Both the position numbers and the translations under genes were made by a program. A stretch of 39,766 nucleotides of DNA from an uncultured bacterium. GTDB lineage: Bacteria; Bacillota; Clostridia; Lachnospirales; Lachnospiraceae. This document shows, piece by piece, positions 20,157 to 32,215 of the stretch (position 1 is its first letter; each line of letters begins with the position of its first letter). The notes beneath the pieces are model-generated. The model searched no databases and was not told the origin of the DNA. It saw nothing but the letters and a program-made list of their open reading frames with translations. Location of the stretch: NCBI GenBank assembly GCA_945871045.1, contig CAMBUC010000001.1, positions 1 through 39,766 on the forward strand, written 5' to 3'.

Positions 20157-21527
20157 ATGCAGGGAATTTTACAATATTTGAGACGCCGGGGATTTGAGTG
20201 TATCGACAGTACCTACTACGGACACATCTCTAACTGGCTCAGATGGTATCAGGGCAAGGTGATCGATTTTCATACGTATAAACAGTATAACGGTCGATGT
20301 CAGATTACCCGGGAGAGAAAGAGCCTGGGTATGGCAAAAAGCATCGCGGAAGACTGGGCGAATCTCGCGCTCAATGAAAAGCTGGATATCACCATTGCCG
20401 AGAAACGGACGCATCAGATCGTAAGTGAAGTCCTGGAACGAAATCAGTTCAAAACACGCGCCAATCAGTTAGTCGAAAAAGCGTTCGCTCTCGGCACAGG
20501 CGCTTTTGTGGAATACAAGGAAAACAACGAGACTCGTATCGACTATGTGCGGGGCAGCATGATCTATCCGTTGACTTGGCATAATGGAGAAATACGGGAA
20601 TGCGCCTTTGCATCCATGCGAACCGCAAACAAACAGCAGCAGCTGTATCTCAATATCCATCGTCTGGAGAACAATCAGTACGTGATTGAAAATCATATGT
20701 TCACTGTCAACGGGGAGACACTGGGCGGAGAAATCGATCTTCCGCCGGATGTGGAAGACGAATATCGAACCTATTCCGATATCCCTATGTTTCAGATCAT
20801 TCGACCGAATATCGTAAACAATATCGACCTGGATAACCCCATGGGGATTTCCGTGTTTGCTAACGCCATCGATCAGCTCAAAGGGATTGATCTGGTGTAC
20901 GACAGTTACTGCAATGAATTCCGTCTTGGAAAAAAGAGAATCACGATTCCCATGTCTATGGCGCGCATCGCCATGGAAGAAGACGGATCGGCACGGCCGG
21001 TATTCGATGATAACGATACCGAATTTTACGCGGTACCGGAAACACAGAACGGCGAGAACAAGATCACAGAGCACAATATGGAGCTGCGGTATCAGGCTCA
21101 TGAAGCCGGCCTGCAGACGGGGCTGAATCTGCTGTCGTATAAATGCGGCTTGGGAAAAGATCGATACAACTTCCAGGACGGTCAAGTGAAGACGGCCACT
21201 GAAGTGGTCAGCGAGAAGTCGGATCTCTTTCAGAATCTCAAGAAACACGAGCTGGTACTGCGCAATGCGATCATCGGCATGGTAAAGGCGATTGAAATTC
21301 TCGAAGGACTTTCCACAGAGCCGGAAATTACCGTGAATTTCGACGATTCCATCATCGAGGATGTAGGCGCAGAGAAACAGAGATTCCTGCAGGAGATCCG
21401 CGACGGTGTGCGCCAAAAGTGGGAATACCGGGTGAAGTTCTTCGGAGAAGACGAAACGACGGCGAAATCTATGATCGAAGAGGAAGAACCGGATCCCTTT
21501 GGATTTAGTCAGGACGGTGATGACTGA
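20157..21527 (+). CDS. Portal protein (A118/SPP1-like)
   Basis: Position, 456 aa, PMGISVF, KTATEV, FDDSII. Confidence 0.92.
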   Translation: MQGILQYLRRRGFECIDSTYYGHISNWLRWYQGKVIDFHTYKQYNGRCQITRERKSLGMAKSIAEDWANLALNEKLDITIAEKRTHQIVSEVLERNQFKTRANQLVEKAFALGTGAFVEYKENNETRIDYVRGSMIYPLTWHNGEIRECAFASMRTANKQQQLYLNIHRLENNQYVIENHMFTVNGETLGGEIDLPPDVEDEYRTYSDIPMFQIIRPNIVNNIDLDNPMGISVFANAIDQLKGIDLVYDSYCNEFRLGKKRITIPMSMARIAMEEDGSARPVFDDNDTEFYAVPETQNGENKITEHNMELRYQAHEAGLQTGLNLLSYKCGLGKDRYNFQDGQVKTATEVVSEKSDLFQNLKKHELVLRNAIIGMVKAIEILEGLSTEPEITVNFDDSIIEDVGAEKQRFLQEIRDGVRQKWEYRVKFFGEDETTAKSMIEEEEPDPFGFSQDGDD

Positions 21528-23077
21528 TGCTGACGCCGGAATTTCTTGACGTGCTGCCGGACACTCTAATAAAGCTCTATGCGCAGGCGGAGCGGGATAT
21601 CCTCATGGACATGGCGCGAAGAATCGGTGCTTATGATTATTGGATTCCTGCAGCGGAGCATCAGAAGCAGATGCTGAAAGAAATGGGCGCTGCGGAAGAA
21701 TATATCTATCAGCGTCTGTCGGAGCTGACAGGAAAGAGCACAGAAGAGCTGAAAGCCTTGTTTCTCATGGCAGCCAATGAGACATTAACGTCAGACGGAG
21801 AATATTATCAGGCGGCGGGACAGGAACCGGAGACGCTGGATACTTCCGAAAATCTGCAGAAGACTCTGACGGCAGGCATGAAGCAGACACAAAATGCTTT
21901 TAAAAATCTCACACGCACGACGGCAAAGGAAGCGACAGGCGCTTTTGTAAAGGTACTCGACCGTGCCTGGATGCAGATTTCTACCGGAGCCTTCGACTAC
22001 AACACGACGATCCGCTCAGCGGTAAAGACACTGGCAGAAAAGGGCATACAAACAGCTAACTATACGTCCGGAAAAACCACATCCGTCGAAGCAGCTGTTC
22101 GGCGAGCCGTACTGACGGGAATCAATCAGACTTCTCTGAAGATGCAGGATGCGCTCGCGGATGAAATGGACAGCGACTTAGTGGAAGTGACCGCCCATTC
22201 CGGCGCCCGGCCGGATCATGCGAAGTGGCAGGGCGGAGTCTACAGCCGTTCCGGAAAATCAAAGAAGTACCCGGATTTTAGAAAGTCTACCGGCTACGGA
22301 ACCGGTTCAGGTCTCGGCGGCTGGAACTGCCGGCATAATTTCTTTCCTTTTTTCGAAGGCAGTTCGCGTAAATATACGGAAGAACAGCTGAAAAAGCTGG
22401 AAGAAAAGGACATCGAGTACAACGGTCAGAAAATGACCAGGTACGAAGCGAGTCAGAAACAGCGGTACATAGAGCGTCAAATCCGGCGCTGGAAGCGTGA
22501 AAACGCCGCCATGCAGGCCGCAGGGCTGGATACTTACGAAAGCGCGGCTAAAATTAAGAAGTGGCAGGCTATTCAGAAAGATTTTATCAAACAGACGAAG
22601 CTGAAGCGGCAGTATGAGAGAGAGCGGGTACCAGGATTCGATTACAAGGCGGCGAAGCAGGTTGAGCGAGATATTGACGCACAGAAGAAAATTGAAAAGC
22701 AAAAACAGGAAAGATATAATAAAAAGAAAGAGGAAGCGATTCAGCTAATTAAGTCAGATACTACTTCGAAATCGATAAATCGCGGACACCAAAACAAGCA
22801 TATAAAAGATTCCGATGGATATATTGAAGGTCGAAGTTATATTTTTGGAACCTTGGAGGATGCTCAAGAACTTGTAGATCGTTATCACGGTACTGGAGAA
22901 GTGAAATTAACCGCATCTATAGAGTGGACGCACAAAGAATTTGTCGTTGCTGATGAACCGATAGGTGTGTGGATTGATAATACAACAGGAAAAGAATATG
23001 AGACCCGCCGATTCTCTATTCATTACGGTAAAAAAGGAACGCATATTGTTCCTGCAAAGGAGGTTGAGGAGGAATGA
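21527..23077 (+). CDS. MuF-type minor capsid protein fused to C-terminal Ntox50-like toxin
   Basis: EVTAHSGARPDHAKWQG..GWNCRH..YEASQKQRYIER; C-terminal QNKHI..GRSY..IHYGKKGTHIVP in AT-richer DNA. Confidence 0.88.
   Translation: MLTPEFLDVLPDTLIKLYAQAERDILMDMARRIGAYDYWIPAAEHQKQMLKEMGAAEEYIYQRLSELTGKSTEELKALFLMAANETLTSDGEYYQAAGQEPETLDTSENLQKTLTAGMKQTQNAFKNLTRTTAKEATGAFVKVLDRAWMQISTGAFDYNTTIRSAVKTLAEKGIQTANYTSGKTTSVEAAVRRAVLTGINQTSLKMQDALADEMDSDLVEVTAHSGARPDHAKWQGGVYSRSGKSKKYPDFRKSTGYGTGSGLGGWNCRHNFFPFFEGSSRKYTEEQLKKLEEKDIEYNGQKMTRYEASQKQRYIERQIRRWKRENAAMQAAGLDTYESAAKIKKWQAIQKDFIKQTKLKRQYERERVPGFDYKAAKQVERDIDAQKKIEKQKQERYNKKKEEAIQLIKSDTTSKSINRGHQNKHIKDSDGYIEGRSYIFGTLEDAQELVDRYHGTGEVKLTASIEWTHKEFVVADEPIGVWIDNTTGKEYETRRFSIHYGKKGTHIVPAKEVEEE
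22692..22720 (+). promoter_or_regulatory. Intragenic sigma-A promoter at MuF/toxin junction
   Basis: TTGAAA-N17-TATAAT. Confidence 0.7.
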
Positions 23078-23253
23078 TTCTTGCTCAGGCACAAGGTAAA
23101 CGTGTTCGGATTACGCTTAAAGATGGTAAAGTTTTCGAGGGGCTTGCGTATGACTACACCTCAGAACTTGATAATGAACCAGATCCGGAAAGCATATCAA
23201 TAGATGGTTTTGAATTGTATGTTGACGAAATTAAAGAGATAGAAGCGATATAA
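23074..23253 (+). CDS. 59-aa acidic probable immunity protein (Sm/LSM-like pattern; not in ORF track)
   Basis: ATGA overlap, SD GAGGAGG; GKRVRITLKDGKVFEG..EIKEIE. Confidence 0.75.
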   Translation: MILAQAQGKRVRITLKDGKVFEGLAYDYTSELDNEPDPESISIDGFELYVDEIKEIEAI

Positions 23254-23271
23254 TAGAATACAGGTGAAAAT

Positions 23272-23589
23272 ATGGACAACTTCAAAGTCATATACAGAAT
23301 TCTCAAACATCTGGAAGCTATGATGGACGCTTCTGAACCGGATATGTCTCCGATTACAGCGGAAAGTCTTGGAATATCACAGATGCGCTGGATCCGTCTC
23401 ATAGAAATGTTAATCAATGAGGGATATATTGAAGGTGCGGAATTGGCATACTGTTTGCGCTCATCTCTGCCGATTGTTTGTGAGAGGGAGATGAGAATTT
23501 CACTGCAAGGTTTGGAATACCTGCAGGAGAACAATCTTATGAAAAAAGTTGCAAGTGATCTAAAAGACAACACAGAAATCCTTGCATAA
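23272..23589 (+). CDS. YjcQ-family protein
   Basis: MDNFKVIYRILKHLE..LINEGYIEG..ISLQGLEYLQEN.LMKK. Confidence 0.85.
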   Translation: MDNFKVIYRILKHLEAMMDASEPDMSPITAESLGISQMRWIRLIEMLINEGYIEGAELAYCLRSSLPIVCEREMRISLQGLEYLQENNLMKKVASDLKDNTEILA

Positions 23590-24249: not shown

Positions 24250-25434
24250 ATGCCAGATATGATTTCCCGCCAGCAGGCGGAAGCTCTGATTCAGGAGCAG
24301 CTGATCAATACGATTCAGCAGGACACCCCAAAAAACTCGATCTTCATGCAGCTGGCACGTCGATTGCCAAATATGACCAGTAAAACGACGCGGATGCCGG
24401 TACTCGATATGCTGCCGATGGCCTACTGGGTTAATGGAGATAATGGCTTCAAACAGACCAGCCAGCAGGCGTGGGACAACGTGTATCTCACTGCTGAGGA
24501 ATTGGCGGTGATCGTACCGATTCCGGAAGCGGTGGTTGACGATGCATCCTTTGACATCATGGGCGAGGTAAGACCACGTGTCACGGAAGCGATCGGTATC
24601 CGTGTCGATCAGGCGGCTATTTTCGGTGTTAGTCGCCCGGCAAGCTGGCGTGCGGATATCATTACTTCCGCGCGGCAGGCAGGGAACAACGTAGCGCCGG
24701 GCAGCGACTTATATAACGCTCTTCTCGGAGAAAACGGTGTAATCTCCAAAGTAGAACAGGGCGGCCGTATGGTCAACGGCGCGGTTGCTGCCATGGCTAT
24801 GCGGGGAAAACTGAGAGGAATTAAAACGACGGAAGGCATGCCGATCTTTAAGTCGGATATGCAGGGCCCGACACAGTACGCACTGGATGGTGCACCGATG
24901 TACTTCCCAATGAATGGCGCCTTTGACACTTCCGTCGCGCAGCTGATCGTCGGCGACTGGTCTCAGGCGGTGTATTCCGTCCGTCAGGATATCACGGTCA
25001 AGATTTTGGATCAGGGTGTGATTCAGGATCCGAGTACGAAAGAAATTGTATATAACCTTGCACAGCAGGATATGATCGCACTTCGTGTAGTGTTCCGTAT
25101 GGGCTGGGCTCTGCCGAATCCGGCCACCAGACTGGATGAAGATCGTCTGTACGTGCCGTTTGCTTATTTGGAGCCGGCTACGGCGGTAACAACGCAGAAG
25201 GTTACTTTTACCGTGAAGAATAACGAGGAAGAACCGGAAGCGGTAGAAGGAGCGGTCATCGATTTAGACGGGGCGCGTCTGAAGACCGGAACAGACGGAA
25301 CTGCGATTTTTAACCTGCGAAAGGGAACCTACAACGCGAAAATTTCGAAGAAAGGTTACGGTACTGTTATCGAAACCGTTAATGTCGATGCGGCAGCCGT
25401 GAGCAAAGATATCACTCTGATCCCGAAAGAATAG
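24250..25434 (+). CDS. Major capsid protein with C-terminal beta-sandwich extension
   Basis: AYWVNG..EELAVIVPIPE..IVGDWS..NLAQQDMIALR; last ~80 aa VTFTV..GAVI..TGTDG.A..GTY...SKKGY. Confidence 0.92.
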   Translation: MPDMISRQQAEALIQEQLINTIQQDTPKNSIFMQLARRLPNMTSKTTRMPVLDMLPMAYWVNGDNGFKQTSQQAWDNVYLTAEELAVIVPIPEAVVDDASFDIMGEVRPRVTEAIGIRVDQAAIFGVSRPASWRADIITSARQAGNNVAPGSDLYNALLGENGVISKVEQGGRMVNGAVAAMAMRGKLRGIKTTEGMPIFKSDMQGPTQYALDGAPMYFPMNGAFDTSVAQLIVGDWSQAVYSVRQDITVKILDQGVIQDPSTKEIVYNLAQQDMIALRVVFRMGWALPNPATRLDEDRLYVPFAYLEPATAVTTQKVTFTVKNNEEEPEAVEGAVIDLDGARLKTGTDGTAIFNLRKGTYNAKISKKGYGTVIETVNVDAAAVSKDITLIPKE

Positions 25435-26548: not shown

Positions 26549-26976
26549 CGAATATCGAAGCCGTGCGCAAATGGCTGCGCACGTACGAGTCGCTTTCTTC
26601 CGGACGTCTTGGCGTGGATTTTCTTCCGGAAAAGGCACAGACCTATTCGGTGGACAGTGTGCCGGGACCGGAGATCGTAAAGAGATATCTGGATGGATCG
26701 GCGGTAAAACAGTTTGATTTCGTTCTGGCTTCCCGGGAATTCTTCGGAGATTCCATCGGACAGAACGCGGATAATCTGCAGTGGTACGAAGAGTTTTCCG
26801 CTTGGGTAGCGCAACAGAACCGACGGCCGAAGCATTTGCCGGAGCTGATGCCGGGCAGACGGGCGCAGAAAGTGGAAGTGACTACCAGCGGATACCCCTT
26901 TCAGATGACTTCTGAAGGAAAAGCCAGATATCAGATACAGCTAAAAATGACATATTTTGAGAAAGGAGCGCGGTAA
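26545..26976 (+). CDS. Tail completion/terminator protein
   Basis: KRYLDGS..QF..N..WYEEF..W..ARYQIQL; precedes tail tube gene. Confidence 0.75.
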   Translation: MTNIEAVRKWLRTYESLSSGRLGVDFLPEKAQTYSVDSVPGPEIVKRYLDGSAVKQFDFVLASREFFGDSIGQNADNLQWYEEFSAWVAQQNRRPKHLPELMPGRRAQKVEVTTSGYPFQMTSEGKARYQIQLKMTYFEKGAR

Positions 26977-26978
26977 TT

Positions 26979-27485
26979 ATGAAATTATCCGAACTGATGG
27001 CAGGTTATACGCCGGATGAGGAGTATGCCGGCATTACAAACACAGATGATTTTGTACTGGCAATCGATATTGCAGATACGCCCAGCACAAAAAAGGGAGA
27101 ATACATTGTCGTAGAAACCGGTGTGACAGCGGTAGATGCGCAGCTGAATCCGGAGACAGAAGATAAAACTTATTTAAGAGCGGGAAAGAGTACCAACAAA
27201 ACGGCGACCCAGCGGACTTTCAATGTCACTGGAGATCGGTTCGAGGGAGACGAATTCCAGGATTATGCTTGCAGCCATGCAATTAAATTCGGCAAGGGTC
27301 AGAAAATCGTCAAGCCTTATGTATATTTTTCATTGCTCACAGGCAAAGGGGAAAGCGGTCAGGCGGCGATTATTGTAAACTCCGATGGATCCGGAGATGC
27401 AGGCGCGGCAGCAGAGGTGGATATCGATATCATGTGCAACAATTCTGCCCCGGTGGAATATACCTACGCCGCAGACAGTGAGTAG
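26979..27485 (+). CDS. Major tail tube protein
   Basis: 168 aa acidic, beta-rich; LNPET..TY..TQRTF.VTGDR..GD.FQD. Confidence 0.8.
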   Translation: MKLSELMAGYTPDEEYAGITNTDDFVLAIDIADTPSTKKGEYIVVETGVTAVDAQLNPETEDKTYLRAGKSTNKTATQRTFNVTGDRFEGDEFQDYACSHAIKFGKGQKIVKPYVYFSLLTGKGESGQAAIIVNSDGSGDAGAAAEVDIDIMCNNSAPVEYTYAADSE

Positions 27486-27495
27486 GAGGATAGGA

Positions 27496-27981
27496 ATGGA
27501 AACATACAGAGTCAATGGCTACGAGGTGGAGTTTGATATCTTTGATCTTACAAATCTGGAACTCTTTGAGTCAGAAAGAAATTTCGCCATGAAGAGAGCT
27601 GAGGAAATGCAGGCTGGTGTTACCGATGGTAACGCGTTAGAGACGCTTCATGAAATGTGTGAGATCGTTCGGGACTTTTTCGATGTCGTGCTGGGAGAGG
27701 GGATCTCCAATAAAATTTTTGGAGCGCGAAGAAACGTCATGACCGAAATGTCAGCCTTGACGAAATTTCTGCAGGACGTGTCTGATGTAATGGATCGTGC
27801 GAAAACACAGATTCTGCAGGTGGAATCGAATTCGCCAACGCGTCCTCCTATGAATCGCCAGCAGAGAAGAGAGGCGGAACGTAAAGCAGAAAGAGAAAAG
27901 CGCAGACAGGAGGCAGCGCAGCGTGCGAAATCCAACGCGGACACTGCAGGAAGCTCGCTGAATACGTCAGTTGAAGCGTAA
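27496..27981 (+). CDS. Tail assembly chaperone
   Basis: FFDVVLGEG...IFG..NRQQRR; SD AGGAGG. Confidence 0.75.
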   Translation: METYRVNGYEVEFDIFDLTNLELFESERNFAMKRAEEMQAGVTDGNALETLHEMCEIVRDFFDVVLGEGISNKIFGARRNVMTEMSALTKFLQDVSDVMDRAKTQILQVESNSPTRPPMNRQQRREAERKAEREKRRQEAAQRAKSNADTAGSSLNTSVEA

Positions 27982-28582
27982 TCCTTTTGAACTGCTGCCG
28001 GATACCGTAAAAGTTGGCGGCGTACAAGTACGTATTAATCCGGATTTTCGCGTCGGTGTTTCGATTGAAACCGAAATGTTACAGGAACATCCGGATGTGG
28101 AAGGTCTGCTGGATCTGTTCTATCCGGTAGGCGTTCCGCAGCCGATAGAGGAAGCGGCCGAGCAGATGATTCGGTTTTATGCCGGAGAAAAAGAGGAAGA
28201 AAACGGAGAGGTACCGAAGATGATTTCTGCATCGAAGGGACGAATCTATGATTTTTCTCTGGATGCCGATGCTCTGACCGCTTCTTTTGCGCAAGCCTAC
28301 GGCATTGATCTGGAACATGACTTAATGCACTGGTGGAAGTTTCGCCGGCTGATGTTCGGTCTCCCTGCAGATACATCTTTTATGCAGCGAATCCATATTC
28401 GCAGCGTGGACATCAATAAAGTAGATAAGTCTCAGAAGGGCTATTACCGGAAGATGAAAAAACTCTATGCTATCCGGCAGCCGGAAAAGAAGCGGAAAAT
28501 GACCGCGGAAGAACGAAACGAACAGATGCGCCAAAAAGTAGCAAAACGATTTGAGGAGGCGCAGGCACATGCAGAAAATTAA
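27971..28582 (+). CDS. A118 Gp15-family tail assembly protein
   Basis: INPDFR..YDF..DA....SF.QAYGIDL....MHWWKF. Confidence 0.85.
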   Translation: MKRNPFELLPDTVKVGGVQVRINPDFRVGVSIETEMLQEHPDVEGLLDLFYPVGVPQPIEEAAEQMIRFYAGEKEEENGEVPKMISASKGRIYDFSLDADALTASFAQAYGIDLEHDLMHWWKFRRLMFGLPADTSFMQRIHIRSVDINKVDKSQKGYYRKMKKLYAIRQPEKKRKMTAEERNEQMRQKVAKRFEEAQAHAEN

Positions 28583-28718
28583 ATGTCCGTACTGCGGCTA
28601 TGTGATGCCTCTAACCCGCACAAAAAGCGCGGTGTGCAGAGGCCTTTTTATCAAGTGTAAAGGCCGCCGATGCGGACGTATTTTTGAGATCAAAATACCG
28701 GAACGAGAAATCAAGTAG
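28569..28718 (+). CDS. 49-aa Com-like zinc-ribbon protein (not in ORF track)
   Basis: SD GAGGAGG; MQKIKCPYCG..GLFIKCKGRRCGRIFEIKI. Confidence 0.75.
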   Translation: MQKIKCPYCGYVMPLTRTKSAVCRGLFIKCKGRRCGRIFEIKIPEREIK

Positions 28719-28768
28719 CGCCTGAGAGCCGATGATTTCGCCACGATGAAAAGGAGGTGGGATCATTG
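28716..28768 (+). promoter_or_regulatory. Tandem NAGNGCC boxes plus SD-occluding hairpin of tape-measure gene
   Basis: TAGCGCC-T-GAGAGCC, then ATGATTTCGCC (28732-42) pairs with GGTGGGATCAT (28756-66). Confidence 0.65.
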
Positions 28769-31700
28769 GCAGACGGCAGTGTGGTTATCGAAATTTCCGG
28801 AGATGACAACGAATTTAAAAAATCGCTTGCGGGCTTAAAGTCAGACAGTAAAAAAAGTGCTGGTGAACTGGAACAGTTAGGTCAGTCCGGGAAAGAAGCC
28901 GGGAGTGAGATTCGCAAAGGAATGAAGGACGCATCCTCCGGTATGGACGATGTGAAAGACTCCGCCGGTGATGGACAGCAGGCCATCGGAAAGATGGGAA
29001 AAGAGTCGGAAGGGGCGAAGAAGTCCCTGAAAGACATGGCTTCAGGGATGCTCTCTTCCTTTAAGGAAATTTCAGGATCCGCAGGAGGGCTGAGCGAAAA
29101 AATCGGAAGTCTCGGTGGAATGATGAAAGCGGCGTTTGCAGCAGGCACTGTTATTGAAGGAATCAAAGCGATTTCCGGAGCTTTTCAGACAGCCATTGAA
29201 AAGTCTACAGAGTTTCAGCAGTCATTGAATCAGCTGCAGGCATCCACCGGAGCCAGCGCGGAACAGATGAAGGAATACGAGTCGGTCATGGAATCCCTGT
29301 GGAGTAATAACTTCGGAGAATCCATGGATGATCTGGCAGATGCAATCTCTGCGGTAAAGCGAAATCTCGGAGATATGGATGCTTCCGCAATGGAAAATGT
29401 CACGGCGCAGGCAATCACTCTGCGGGATACCTTTGAGTACGATATCGCGGAATCTACGAAAGCGGCGAAAGCCATGATGAAGAACTTCGGTGTGTCTGCA
29501 GAGCAGGCGTTTAACCTGATCGCCGCCGGCGCGCAGAACGGGCTGGACTATTCCGGAGAGATGCTGGATTCCATCAGTGAGTATTCGGTGCAGTTTGCGA
29601 AGATGGGATTTTCCGCAGATGAGATGTTTCATATTCTGCAGACCGGCGCGGACGCAGGTGCTTTTAACTTAGACAAGATTGGGGATGCAATCAAAGAAAA
29701 CGCCATACGCGTCATCGATTTGTCCGATACGTCTCGCGGTGCTTTTCAGAGTCTGGGCTTAAACATCAAAGATATGGAGAAGAAGTTCGCCGCTGGCGGA
29801 GAATCTGCCAATCAGGCATTCGAGCAGGTAGTCACCGGGCTGTCTCTGATCAAAGATCCGCTGAAGCAGAATGAGATCGGTGTGGCTCTTTTCGGTACCA
29901 TGTGGGAAGATCTCGGACCGCGGGTAGTAACTCAGCTGGCAAATATCTCCGATAAAGCCTATGCGTCATCTGATGCAATGCAGCAGATGATGAATGTCAA
30001 GTATGATGACTTCAACAGCGCGCTGGAAGGTGCCCGGCGGTCGATGGATGTCTTTTTTAAGAACATTGGAGATCAGTTCACGCCTCAGCTGACCTCTGCG
30101 ATGGGAGCAGTCGCGCAGGGAATCCAGAGTGTTACTGCAGGTATGAAAGAGAATGGATTCACGGGAGCCCTGGAAGCAGCTCATTCCACGTTACAGGGAT
30201 TTATCGGTGGAATTCAGGAAAATCTCCCTTCCATGATTGCTTCCGGAGGGGAGATGATCCTGCAGTTCATTACGGGCGCTGTCTCTTTTCTGCCGGAAAT
30301 TTTAAGTATTGGCGCCAGCATTGTTACCAGTGTGATCGAAGGTATCGCACAAATGCTGCCGGAACTGCCTGGTATTGCCGCAGATGCGATTGTGTCCTTT
30401 CTCGACGGTCTGACGTCAGGAGATAGTCAGATGATAGGGAAGGGCGCGGAACTTCTGCTGAAAGTTATCGAAGGTATTATCAAGATGATTCCGGAGCTGA
30501 TTGTCGCTACTGGACGGATTCTTGCAGCTTTAGGTGAGGCTCTGGCGAATGGACTTTCTTCTATGCTGGAAAAGGGCGTAGAACTGGCGAAGAGTGTCAT
30601 CTCAGGGATCGCAAATAAACTGCCGGAGATTTTAGCTAAGGGTAAGGAGATCGTCTCCAATGTAGCCAGTGGTATTGTAGAAGGAATTGGCGCTGTATTG
30701 GATGGCGCCGCCCAAGTCGTGAGTACCATTGTCACGACACTAAGAGATGCCATTGACAAAGTCAAAGAAGTTGGCCGCAACATCATCGAAGGCCTGTGGA
30801 AGGGGATCAAAGAAAAATTCGAATGGGTCAAGGAAAAAGTTTCTGGTGTTGTAGAAGGCATTAAAGGAATTTTCACCGGACTGTTTCAGACAAATTCTCC
30901 ATCTAAGTTCACACAACAGGTAGGCGGTTGGGTCATGGAAGGTCTCGGAAACGGCATAGAAGATAATGCGGATATTCCAATAGATGCCGCAGGTGATGCG
31001 GTTCAGGAGACGAAGGAAGTCTTTCTCGAAGGACTGCAGGATGCCGAACGAGAAGCCGAAAAGATCATCAAAAAAGACTATAAAACCATAGGCCAAGTGC
31101 AGATCGACGAAATGATCAGGGGGCTTGAATCGAAGAAGGAAGATTCTCTGACCGCTTTTGAAAAATTGGTAGAGGATCAGTTCAAGGCATATAAAGATAA
31201 GTCCGGAAGCTTGACAGGGGAATATAAGACTGCTGCGGATCTGCTGATCAGTGAATACAAAGATGCTCTGAATGAAGGCTATAAAGAAGCGGAAACTTTG
31301 GTCAAAGAGCGGATGACTGCTATCGCTACAGAGTATCAGAGCCAGTATGACGACATCATCAAGAAGCGGGACAGCTTGCAGGATGCCCTGTCTTCTGATT
31401 TTGGGGATTTGTTCGCTTTTGAGGATGATACGGTTCAGCTGGAAAATATCGACCGTTCGATTGAGCAGATTCAACAATACAACGATCTTCTGACACAGCT
31501 TAGAGAGGAATATGGCGCGACGGATGAATTCCTTGCGGAGATTACCAGTCTCGGCGCGGATAAAGGTCTGATGGCAGCGAAGAAACTGGTGAATCTCGGT
31601 CAGGAAGAGTTCGGCGCTTATCAGACGAAATGGCTGGAAAAACAGCAGCTGGCGCAGGAAGTAGCCTCGGCCTTTTATGCAGATCAACTGAATACACTGG

Positions 31701-32215
31701 ACAGTGAATTCAATCAAAAATTAGATGAGGCCCTGGCGGATATTCCGGGAGAACTGGAATCCATCGGAAAAGACTCCATGCAGGGCTGGATCGACGGCAT
31801 GAATTCCAAACTGCCGGATTTGGAAGCGAAGGCACGCAGCATTGCCAATCGAGTGATTTCCGCGATGCGGGATGCGATGGATATTCACAGCCCGTCGAAG
31901 AAATCAGCGAAGTTGGTGGGTGTTCCTACAGCGCAGGGGATAGGTGTCGGCTTTGAGCGTGCTTTTCCTCAGGTAATGTCAAAGCTGCGCGGTACTGTGG
32001 ATGTGGAAATGGCACGGACTTCTGCAAGACTCACCGGGGCGGCAAACCGCGGCGGCATCAATGGCACGGTCCGAGAGATCACCAATAATAACACTACAGT
32101 GGAACGAACTGTAGGTGTCGAGGCTACCGGATCCCTGGCAGAACTGATCCGGTTGTTGCGGCTTGAAATTATCAAAGAAGACAAACGTGTCGGAAAGAGC
32201 ATGGTGACAGCATAA
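28766..32215 (+). CDS. Tail tape measure protein
   Basis: ~1150 aa helical; (M)ADGSVVIEI; ALFGTMWEDLG; TNSPSK/IHSPSK; TTG 28766 fits SD AAGGAGGTG. Confidence 0.95.
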   Translation: MADGSVVIEISGDDNEFKKSLAGLKSDSKKSAGELEQLGQSGKEAGSEIRKGMKDASSGMDDVKDSAGDGQQAIGKMGKESEGAKKSLKDMASGMLSSFKEISGSAGGLSEKIGSLGGMMKAAFAAGTVIEGIKAISGAFQTAIEKSTEFQQSLNQLQASTGASAEQMKEYESVMESLWSNNFGESMDDLADAISAVKRNLGDMDASAMENVTAQAITLRDTFEYDIAESTKAAKAMMKNFGVSAEQAFNLIAAGAQNGLDYSGEMLDSISEYSVQFAKMGFSADEMFHILQTGADAGAFNLDKIGDAIKENAIRVIDLSDTSRGAFQSLGLNIKDMEKKFAAGGESANQAFEQVVTGLSLIKDPLKQNEIGVALFGTMWEDLGPRVVTQLANISDKAYASSDAMQQMMNVKYDDFNSALEGARRSMDVFFKNIGDQFTPQLTSAMGAVAQGIQSVTAGMKENGFTGALEAAHSTLQGFIGGIQENLPSMIASGGEMILQFITGAVSFLPEILSIGASIVTSVIEGIAQMLPELPGIAADAIVSFLDGLTSGDSQMIGKGAELLLKVIEGIIKMIPELIVATGRILAALGEALANGLSSMLEKGVELAKSVISGIANKLPEILAKGKEIVSNVASGIVEGIGAVLDGAAQVVSTIVTTLRDAIDKVKEVGRNIIEGLWKGIKEKFEWVKEKVSGVVEGIKGIFTGLFQTNSPSKFTQQVGGWVMEGLGNGIEDNADIPIDAAGDAVQETKEVFLEGLQDAEREAEKIIKKDYKTIGQVQIDEMIRGLESKKEDSLTAFEKLVEDQFKAYKDKSGSLTGEYKTAADLLISEYKDALNEGYKEAETLVKERMTAIATEYQSQYDDIIKKRDSLQDALSSDFGDLFAFEDDTVQLENIDRSIEQIQQYNDLLTQLREEYGATDEFLAEITSLGADKGLMAAKKLVNLGQEEFGAYQTKWLEKQQLAQEVASAFYADQLNTLDSEFNQKLDEALADIPGELESIGKDSMQGWIDGMNSKLPDLEAKARSIANRVISAMRDAMDIHSPSKKSAKLVGVPTAQGIGVGFERAFPQVMSKLRGTVDVEMARTSARLTGAANRGGINGTVREITNNNTTVERTVGVEATGSLAELIRLLRLEIIKEDKRVGKSMVTA

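Follow-up and report, generated by a model that had tools for sequence, protein, structure and literature searches.

A zinc-ribbon gene, tandem RNA boxes, and a predicted start-codon hairpin form a conserved, probably Com-like module before the tape-measure gene in many gut Clostridia phages

Low synthesis of the tape-measure protein (TMP), in step with the tail chaperones, is usually explained in long-tailed phages by the G/GT frameshift, and lambda-type tails need only a few copies of TMP each. How this synthesis is set in a phage in which a very small zinc-ribbon gene stands directly before the TMP gene is the question raised by the locus described here. The DNA analyzed, a 39,766-nucleotide stretch from an uncultured Lachnospiraceae bacterium (the window), is a temperate siphovirus-type prophage with integrase, replication genes, terminase, portal, capsid, and tail genes. 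Its tail-tube gene (26979–27485) is followed by a DUF6673 gene, a gp15-like gene, the zinc-ribbon gene, and the TMP gene (Table 1). The analysis reveals a module that is real and conserved, with a protein that is not of the Com family of phage Mu and a working that we infer to be of the Com/mom type.

Table 1. Positions of the module and its neighboring genes in the window
Feature	Position	Strand	Basis or remark
DUF6673 gene, tail-chaperone position	27496..27981	+	Profile matches; no −1 frameshift into gp15
gp15-like gene (PF06854)	27971..28582	+	Pfam; overlaps the start of the zinc-ribbon gene by 14 nt
Zinc-ribbon gene, 49 aa, CxxC-x20-CxxxxC; predicted RNA-binding activator	28569..28718	+	ORF, Shine-Dalgarno sequence (SD), phrog_5602 (E = 2e-5)
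RNA element, 5′ part: CAAG-TAG and box 1 (GCGCC, 28718–28722)	28712..28722	+	Shared with the final codons and the stop of the zinc-ribbon gene
Box 2 (GAGCC) and GATG; GCC forms the base of the predicted inhibitory stem	28726..28734	+	Family comparison
15-bp hairpin (predicted) that encloses the entire TTG start and GGTG of the SD	28728..28770	+	Fold, conservation, co-variation
SD of the TMP gene (AAGGAGGTG); AAGGA in the loop, GGTG paired	28751..28759	+	Sequence and fold
TMP gene, TTG start	28766..32215	+	Pfam PF10145, PHROG tape-measure matches

An initial annotation of the locus had identified the downstream gene as TMP and had seen no −1 chaperone frameshift in the tail operon, and both claims hold. 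The downstream gene matches PF10145 with an E value of 1e-27, the PHROG matches agree, and its start was set at the TTG, where the N terminus aligns with the TTG/ATG-GC starts of relatives; a mechanical ORF call had placed it at GTG 28757. The gp15-like gene lies in the +1 frame relative to the upstream chaperone-like gene, and the sole slippery heptamer of the gene in the chaperone position runs into a stop after five codons, which together rule out a −1 chaperone frameshift. Across relatives, gp15 overlaps the chaperone-position gene as a gene of its own, and all three relative frames occur. Extension of gp15 into the zinc ribbon by frameshifting was rejected because the relative frame of the two differs among relatives. 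As with the −1 frameshift chaperones G/GT of lambda, control would be translational and placed at the junction just before the TMP gene, but there is no frameshift here and control is proposed to fall on TMP initiation itself. The gp15-like gene starts at a TTG (27971) that lacks a clear SD, and it runs over the stop of the gene before it by 11 nt, which suggests that its own start is translationally coupled to the upstream gene.

The zinc-ribbon gene was found as described in the initial annotation, with an ATG, 49 residues, and a TAG, preceded at 9 nt by the SD GAGGAGG, and with its cysteines arranged as C6-x2-C9 and C30-x4-C35. All four cysteines are invariant in 64 zinc-ribbon sequences, and the AlphaFold2 model of the protein is a four-strand β-ribbon with a pLDDT of 88. 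A crude pN/pS of 0.15 over 37 close pairs places the protein under purifying selection. Neither Pfam nor NCBIfam yielded a family above cut-off for any of 13 family members, a sequence search of the PDB returned only generic CxxC matches, and Foldseek gave no hit at E ≤ 0.001 for the model in the PDB (best, the ZitP zinc finger, E = 0.52) or BFVD. A tblastn search of 50,697 GenBank phages produced no match, and this query thus led to no cultured model phage. The zinc-ribbon protein has homologues in nine of 200 genomes from the host family, in 13 of 400 from the class, and in 391 of the 600 viral stretches that were inspected (80 of the 391 were kept), and the zinc-ribbon profile finds at least 313 cluster representatives at E ≤ 0.001. 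Relatives with named hosts come from Clostridia such as Blautia, Faecalimonas, Lactonifactor, and Hydrogeniiclostridium.

The stop codon of the zinc-ribbon gene begins the sequence TAGCGCCTGAGAGCC (28716–28730). This had been read as TAGCGCC-T-GAGAGCC; the boxes do lie at the stop codon, but the register shared by the family is GCGCC-TGA-GAGCC, with a period of 8 in the window; roughly 40% of relatives, or 21 of 50 tandem elements, have a period of 10. The conserved element begins upstream of the stop, within the last two codons (CAAG-TAG). The element stands out from chance: the window contains the tandem-box pattern at this one place, and the TAG-anchored pattern has a single occurrence in the entire 2.07-Mb genome. 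In the predicted fold, 28728–28742 pairs with 28756–28770 to give a hairpin of 15 bp, four of them G-U, with a free energy of −24.1 kcal/mol (z = −4.4; none of 200 shuffles folds as well). The initial annotation had proposed an 11-bp stem with three G-U pairs that covers part of the SD and the first base of the TTG. A stem that covers part of the SD is indeed predicted, but the 11 bp are only its inner part: four outer pairs involve the GCC of box 2 and enclose what remains of the TTG (28766–28768) together with two bases of codon 2.

By prediction, unfolding the TMP initiation region costs 23.0 kcal/mol versus 0.7–10.8 kcal/mol at 33 other ORF starts in the window (a few of these set one codon off), making the TMP start by far the most closed of the 34 compared. 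When the GCC of box 2 was blocked in silico, the opening cost fell from 17.2 to 11.2 kcal/mol (a third) in the window and from a median of 18.3 to 9.1 kcal/mol (half) over 54 elements of the family; ∼11 kcal/mol of the window stem is left even then. A block reaching just to the base before the stem left the cost at 18.4 kcal/mol. Rfam yielded no family at gathering score in the window, with only a chance snoRNA match (E = 0.35) around the element, and none on the elements of 12 related loci; no terminator-like site was found on the + strand of the element region.

A long ORF adjoins the zinc-ribbon gene in 70 of 73 distinct loci, the exceptions being L059 (contig end), L104 (no element, and the contig ends early), and L053, where the element lies ∼130 nt further on. 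A tape-measure family match lies downstream in all 61 loci scanned (from the 70, eight near-duplicates and one short fragment were left out), and a gp15-like ORF is the upstream neighbor in 36 of the 53 relatives searched for one. The three-part module of zinc ribbon, tandem G(T/A/C)GCC boxes, and predicted start-occluding hairpin recurs in 54 non-redundant relatives, so that the boxes noticed in the window are conserved. The element consensus (n = 54) reads YAAG-TAG-(T/A)GCC-N3 or N5-G(T/A)GCC-GAT(G/A), a variable stem, AGGTG, and (T/A)TG-GC. Box 1 is almost invariant as G-x-G-C-C in 51 elements; box 2 is GTGCC in 32 of the 54, GAGCC in 14, GCGCC in five, and something else in three, and GATG or GATA follows it directly in 40. 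The last Lys codon of the zinc-ribbon genes is AAG in 34 of 35 cases, compared with 91 of 283 elsewhere in the same genes, and the third base of the penultimate codon is C in 33 of 38, compared with 181 of 712. Judged by these codons, the box sequence is held at synonymous sites and is thus conserved at the nucleotide level. Box copies are also multiplied in places: in L067 (4145–4240) the element is duplicated between zinc ribbon and TMP, and L106 has several box copies between the zinc-ribbon stop and TMP.

The four basal pairs, which join box 2 to the start codon, are paired in 51, 50, 54, and 51 of the 54 elements, and TTG is the TMP start in 28. These pairs hardly vary and consequently do not prove pairing by themselves. 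Forty-two of the 54 elements fold at z below −2, a figure inflated by the choice of ends at the box, and eight fold no better than z = −1. Co-variation across related phages, which had been suggested as a check on the initial reading, was found in the variable stem. With the conserved base excluded, cognate inner arms pair at −6.2 kcal/mol versus −4.9 kcal/mol for swapped arms (50 of 54 elements; reached in none of 10,000 permutations, relatedness uncorrected). In a MAFFT alignment of 51 elements, 27 cells are changed on both sides versus 17 ± 3 in shuffles, again uncorrected for relatedness, and a named nine-pair helix has 77.9% paired cells, above all slid controls. RNAalifold predicted no consensus structure and no pairs on the same alignment, probably because the variable stem is poorly aligned.

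To control for co-occurrence independently of the protein, 70 loci were anchored on gp15; the TMP N terminus was recognized in 32, and the other 38 have no recognizable TMP start in range. A box is present in all ten loci with a zinc ribbon before TMP (tandem in seven) and in none of the 22 without, although eight of the ten were already in the training set, and the groups are linked by phylogeny and in part coincide with the loci from which the profiles were built. The median fold at the TMP start is −18.1 kcal/mol with the zinc ribbon versus −8.7 kcal/mol without; an NNN-GC TMP start is also found in nine of the 22 zinc-ribbon-less loci. In a motif-first scan of viral sequences, a zinc-ribbon gene lies ≤600 nt upstream in 120 of 120, and a TMP-like start downstream in 118 of 120, among the matches listed. 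Genome-wide, the DNA pattern is too loose, as 106 of 121 matches have no zinc ribbon and come mostly from unrelated GC-rich genomes.

One of these 106 is a real second copy. In the prophage of genome G931, a 13-kb stretch holds a single zinc-ribbon gene and two elements, the second of which (L497 7741–7800, on G931:C13) is complete, folds at z = −4.2, and precedes a 1404-aa late gene with a TTG start. No other second copy was confirmed in the 53 records that have a match, leaving aside two genomes with one extra match each on another contig. As the second G931 element lies 4.6 kb downstream of the only zinc-ribbon gene, action in trans is favored. At two other loci, L134 and L142, ∼370–410 nt are inserted right after the gp15 stop and before TMP. 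The two insertions share a similar non-coding stretch, each has a promoter-like start, and neither has an Rfam match at gathering score.

Taken together, the sequence comparisons make it reasonably probable that the zinc ribbon is a Com-like activator of TMP translation. The TMP start would be locked in the predicted hairpin, the base of which is the second of the two conserved boxes; the zinc-ribbon protein, translated from the same mRNA, would likely bind the boxes as single-stranded RNA and unzip the base of the stem, switching TMP translation on. Since the late transcript carries the genes for the tail tube and the chaperone position ahead of the zinc-ribbon gene, synthesis of TMP would begin only once the tube, the chaperone-position proteins, and the activator have accumulated, and would stay low. 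The switch would thus be a delay and a dosage valve for a protein needed in few copies. For the zinc-ribbon protein, we infer RNA binding, the positive sign of control, and this purpose alike.

The initial annotation had cast this logic as that of Com and mom, a view that gains from the conserved boxes, the co-varying stem, the co-occurrence, and the distant element, and loses in that the protein lies outside the Com family, the short target hairpin is predicted to be unstable, and the crucial GA is mostly GU. Mu Com is reported to bind CC(N)2–3GAG, with GA crucial, in a small hairpin overlapping an inhibitory stem (PMC6483171), and its cysteines lie at 6/9/26/29 as CxxC-x16-CxxC (PMC3299994). 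Like Com, the window protein is a small four-cysteine zinc ribbon encoded just upstream on the same transcript, and, as at mom, the 3′ copy of the tandem boxes overlaps a stem, here a predicted one, with a non-AUG start codon. The window contains CC-TGA-GAG (28721–28728), a CC(N)3GAG, but the GAG belongs to box 2, which is GAGCC in just 14 of 54 relatives. The cysteine spacing, CxxC-x20-CxxxxC, differs from that of Com, however, and the long C-terminal tail is absent; GU replaces the crucial GA at 32 of 54 box-2 sites, the boxes being mostly GUGCC; the predicted inhibitory stem is much longer; the element straddles the zinc-ribbon stop, whereas that of Mu lies inside the regulator ORF; and the target is an essential tail gene rather than the DNA-modification gene mom. 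A small hairpin of the Com type is not stable in the window (−1.2 kcal/mol, z = +0.9) and is weak or absent in relatives. With this hairpin predicted to be unstable and GA mostly GU, recognition must differ from that of Com.

Membership of the Com family (PF10122) was ruled out by the other cysteine spacing, the lack of a profile match (none at E ≤ 1 for the window protein, and none in G000), and similarity at background level, as Com sequences score no better than host zinc-ribbon decoys on the zinc-ribbon profile. An hhalign comparison with Com (ten sequences, including that of Mu) aligned one knuckle, out of register. A shorter zinc-ribbon subfamily does align in register with Com (probability 59%), and phrog_5602 weakly matches the zinc-ribbon family, a Com-like protein, and a Cys_rich_KTR protein; a remote homology with Com is possible on these grounds. 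A Com-like protein of L124 matches phrog_13819 (E = 8e-8) and narrowly misses the PF10122 cut-off of 22.9 (22.1 bits); it occupies the same slot before TMP. Its gene (669–812, − strand) belongs to a gp15-type tail module, and a single box leads into a start hairpin of the type seen in L006, L011, and L091. PF10122 homologues of Bacillota (L108–L115) resemble the window in having GAGAGCC-N2–4-GAGCCC boxes after the gene, the last box being the base of a stem, but they have the canonical Com sequence, and many of their stems are terminator-like. At L108/L121 (G859:C13 5754–6162), there are two tandem Com-family genes, each with its own boxes and stem.

The link to Cys_rich_KTR (PF14205), a Pfam family without an assigned function, is better: the zinc-ribbon family is tied to it through both protein and RNA. 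The two profiles match in register over their full length (probability 92–96%), 11 of 19 KTR sequences rank above every one of 479 host decoys on the zinc-ribbon core profile, and Cys_rich_KTR is a neighbor of the zinc-ribbon protein in a feature search (0.92). The window protein has no PF14205 match that reaches the Pfam cut-off and lacks the KTR residues; fringe zinc-ribbon members reach E values down to 4e-5, and one passes the cut-off. By these profile comparisons, the zinc-ribbon protein belongs to an unnamed family, outside Pfam Com and distantly related to Cys_rich_KTR. As in the window, the gene ends in boxes: in 14 of 20 KTR loci these are GAGCC boxes, and a strong stem has its 5′ base in the last copy (GAGCCGAT). 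These stems (−21 to −30 kcal/mol) differ in leading into a U-rich tail and are terminator-like, whereas the window stem is predicted to hold the SD and start codon. The conserved C-terminal peptide of Cys_rich_KTR is probably the RNA box motif read as codons. In KTR loci L195–L223, AGACGC repeats lie between tandem GAGCC boxes.

Three other readings of the locus were weighed. The hairpin might be melted by the ribosome finishing the small gene, which would then be handed over to TMP, with the zinc ribbon at work elsewhere, for example in tail assembly. The position of the stop codon fits such coupling: of 51 elements, 38 have it on box 1 itself and 50 have it no more than 18 nt away; even at L053, where the element is displaced, a 36-codon ORF ends on the box-1 TAG, and in 19 of 22 zinc-ribbon-less loci TMP starts ≤75 nt from the gp15 stop. 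The stem begins 12–14 nt past the stop, however, and an in silico block to that point, set by the size of a ribosome footprint, leaves it closed. Coupling also accounts neither for the invariant tandem boxes and their 8/10 spacing nor for the same boxes leading into terminator-like stems at KTR and Com loci, and the second element of G931 has no adjoining zinc-ribbon stop, although another gene ends ∼20 nt upstream. This reading is considered unlikely. Activation by the zinc-ribbon protein is likewise preferred to a role in which it binds the boxes but represses TMP by clamping the stem, or protects or processes the mRNA, and so caps TMP output. Few copies of TMP are needed, which would suit a repressor, and both G931 boxes lie inside a longer predicted stem, which makes double-stranded recognition possible; PMC6483171 also cites conflicting reports of Com binding duplex RNA. 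The sole tested precedent, Com, is nevertheless an activator, and, with the predicted hairpin making this the most closed start of the window even when no protein is bound, a repressor would add little. A repressive or protective role is thus judged very unlikely.

The remaining reading moves control from RNA to DNA: the zinc ribbon would be a late activator of the P2 Ogr type, with the boxes as direct repeats of an internal promoter. Its CxxC...CxxxxC ligand pattern is that of Ogr, six of 13 members match PF04606 weakly (best E = 9e-4, below cut-off), and box spacing is 10 bp in 21 of 50 tandem elements. Half of the elements are at 8-bp spacing, however, the boxes stand just 35–50 nt ahead of the start codon, and box 2 forms part of a co-varying RNA stem. 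No promoter-like site was found on the + strand in 26900–29000, the profile matches P2 Ogr with a probability of 1.5%, and the window protein matches PF04606 at E = 0.14, leaving a DNA-binding role most improbable.

Beyond this locus, Com, the zinc-ribbon phage family, and Cys_rich_KTR, whose members belong to clostridial mobile DNA, may, tentatively, form one superfamily of tiny zinc-ribbon stem openers, each reading tandem GAGCC/GUGCC boxes that end its own gene and opening a stem at the last box. It is equally conjectural that this stem would be a start-codon lock on TMP here and a transcription terminator in KTR and many Com loci. If true, the superfamily reading would explain what a widespread unknown family does and describe a portable, self-timed RNA switch. 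The type of mechanism has itself been known since the work on Mu; what is new is a family outside PF10122 with shifted boxes, a co-occurrence control independent of the protein, a distant second site, and the tie to KTR. An unannotated family that spans at least 313 sequence clusters thereby receives a likely function, and the putative protein-plus-RNA switch on the TMP start would be an alternative to the G/GT frameshift, which these phages lack. A full-text literature search found no description of the module and none of a function of KTR proteins; most subscription papers lay beyond its reach, and motif catalogues in supplements could contain the element. The accessible parts of PMC3299994 and PMC13551039 do not describe the module. 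Com/RNA pairs already serve as RNA-recruitment tools (PMC9369418), and a 49-aa protein with a different box is therefore a candidate orthogonal pair.

Three further genes of the window have unusual domain compositions. At 21527–23589, a minor capsid protein (PF06152) is fused to a bacterial toxin 50 domain (PF15542) and is followed by a YjcQ-family gene, possibly that of an immunity protein, an arrangement that we take to resemble head-packaged polymorphic toxins. The major capsid protein (24250–25434) carries in the same frame a C-terminal carboxypeptidase-regulatory-like domain of the Ig type, by a weak Pfam match. Beside the integrase, a cargo gene (1412–2902, − strand) combines copper-amine-oxidase N-terminal, metallo-β-lactamase-fold, and Ada-type zinc domains.
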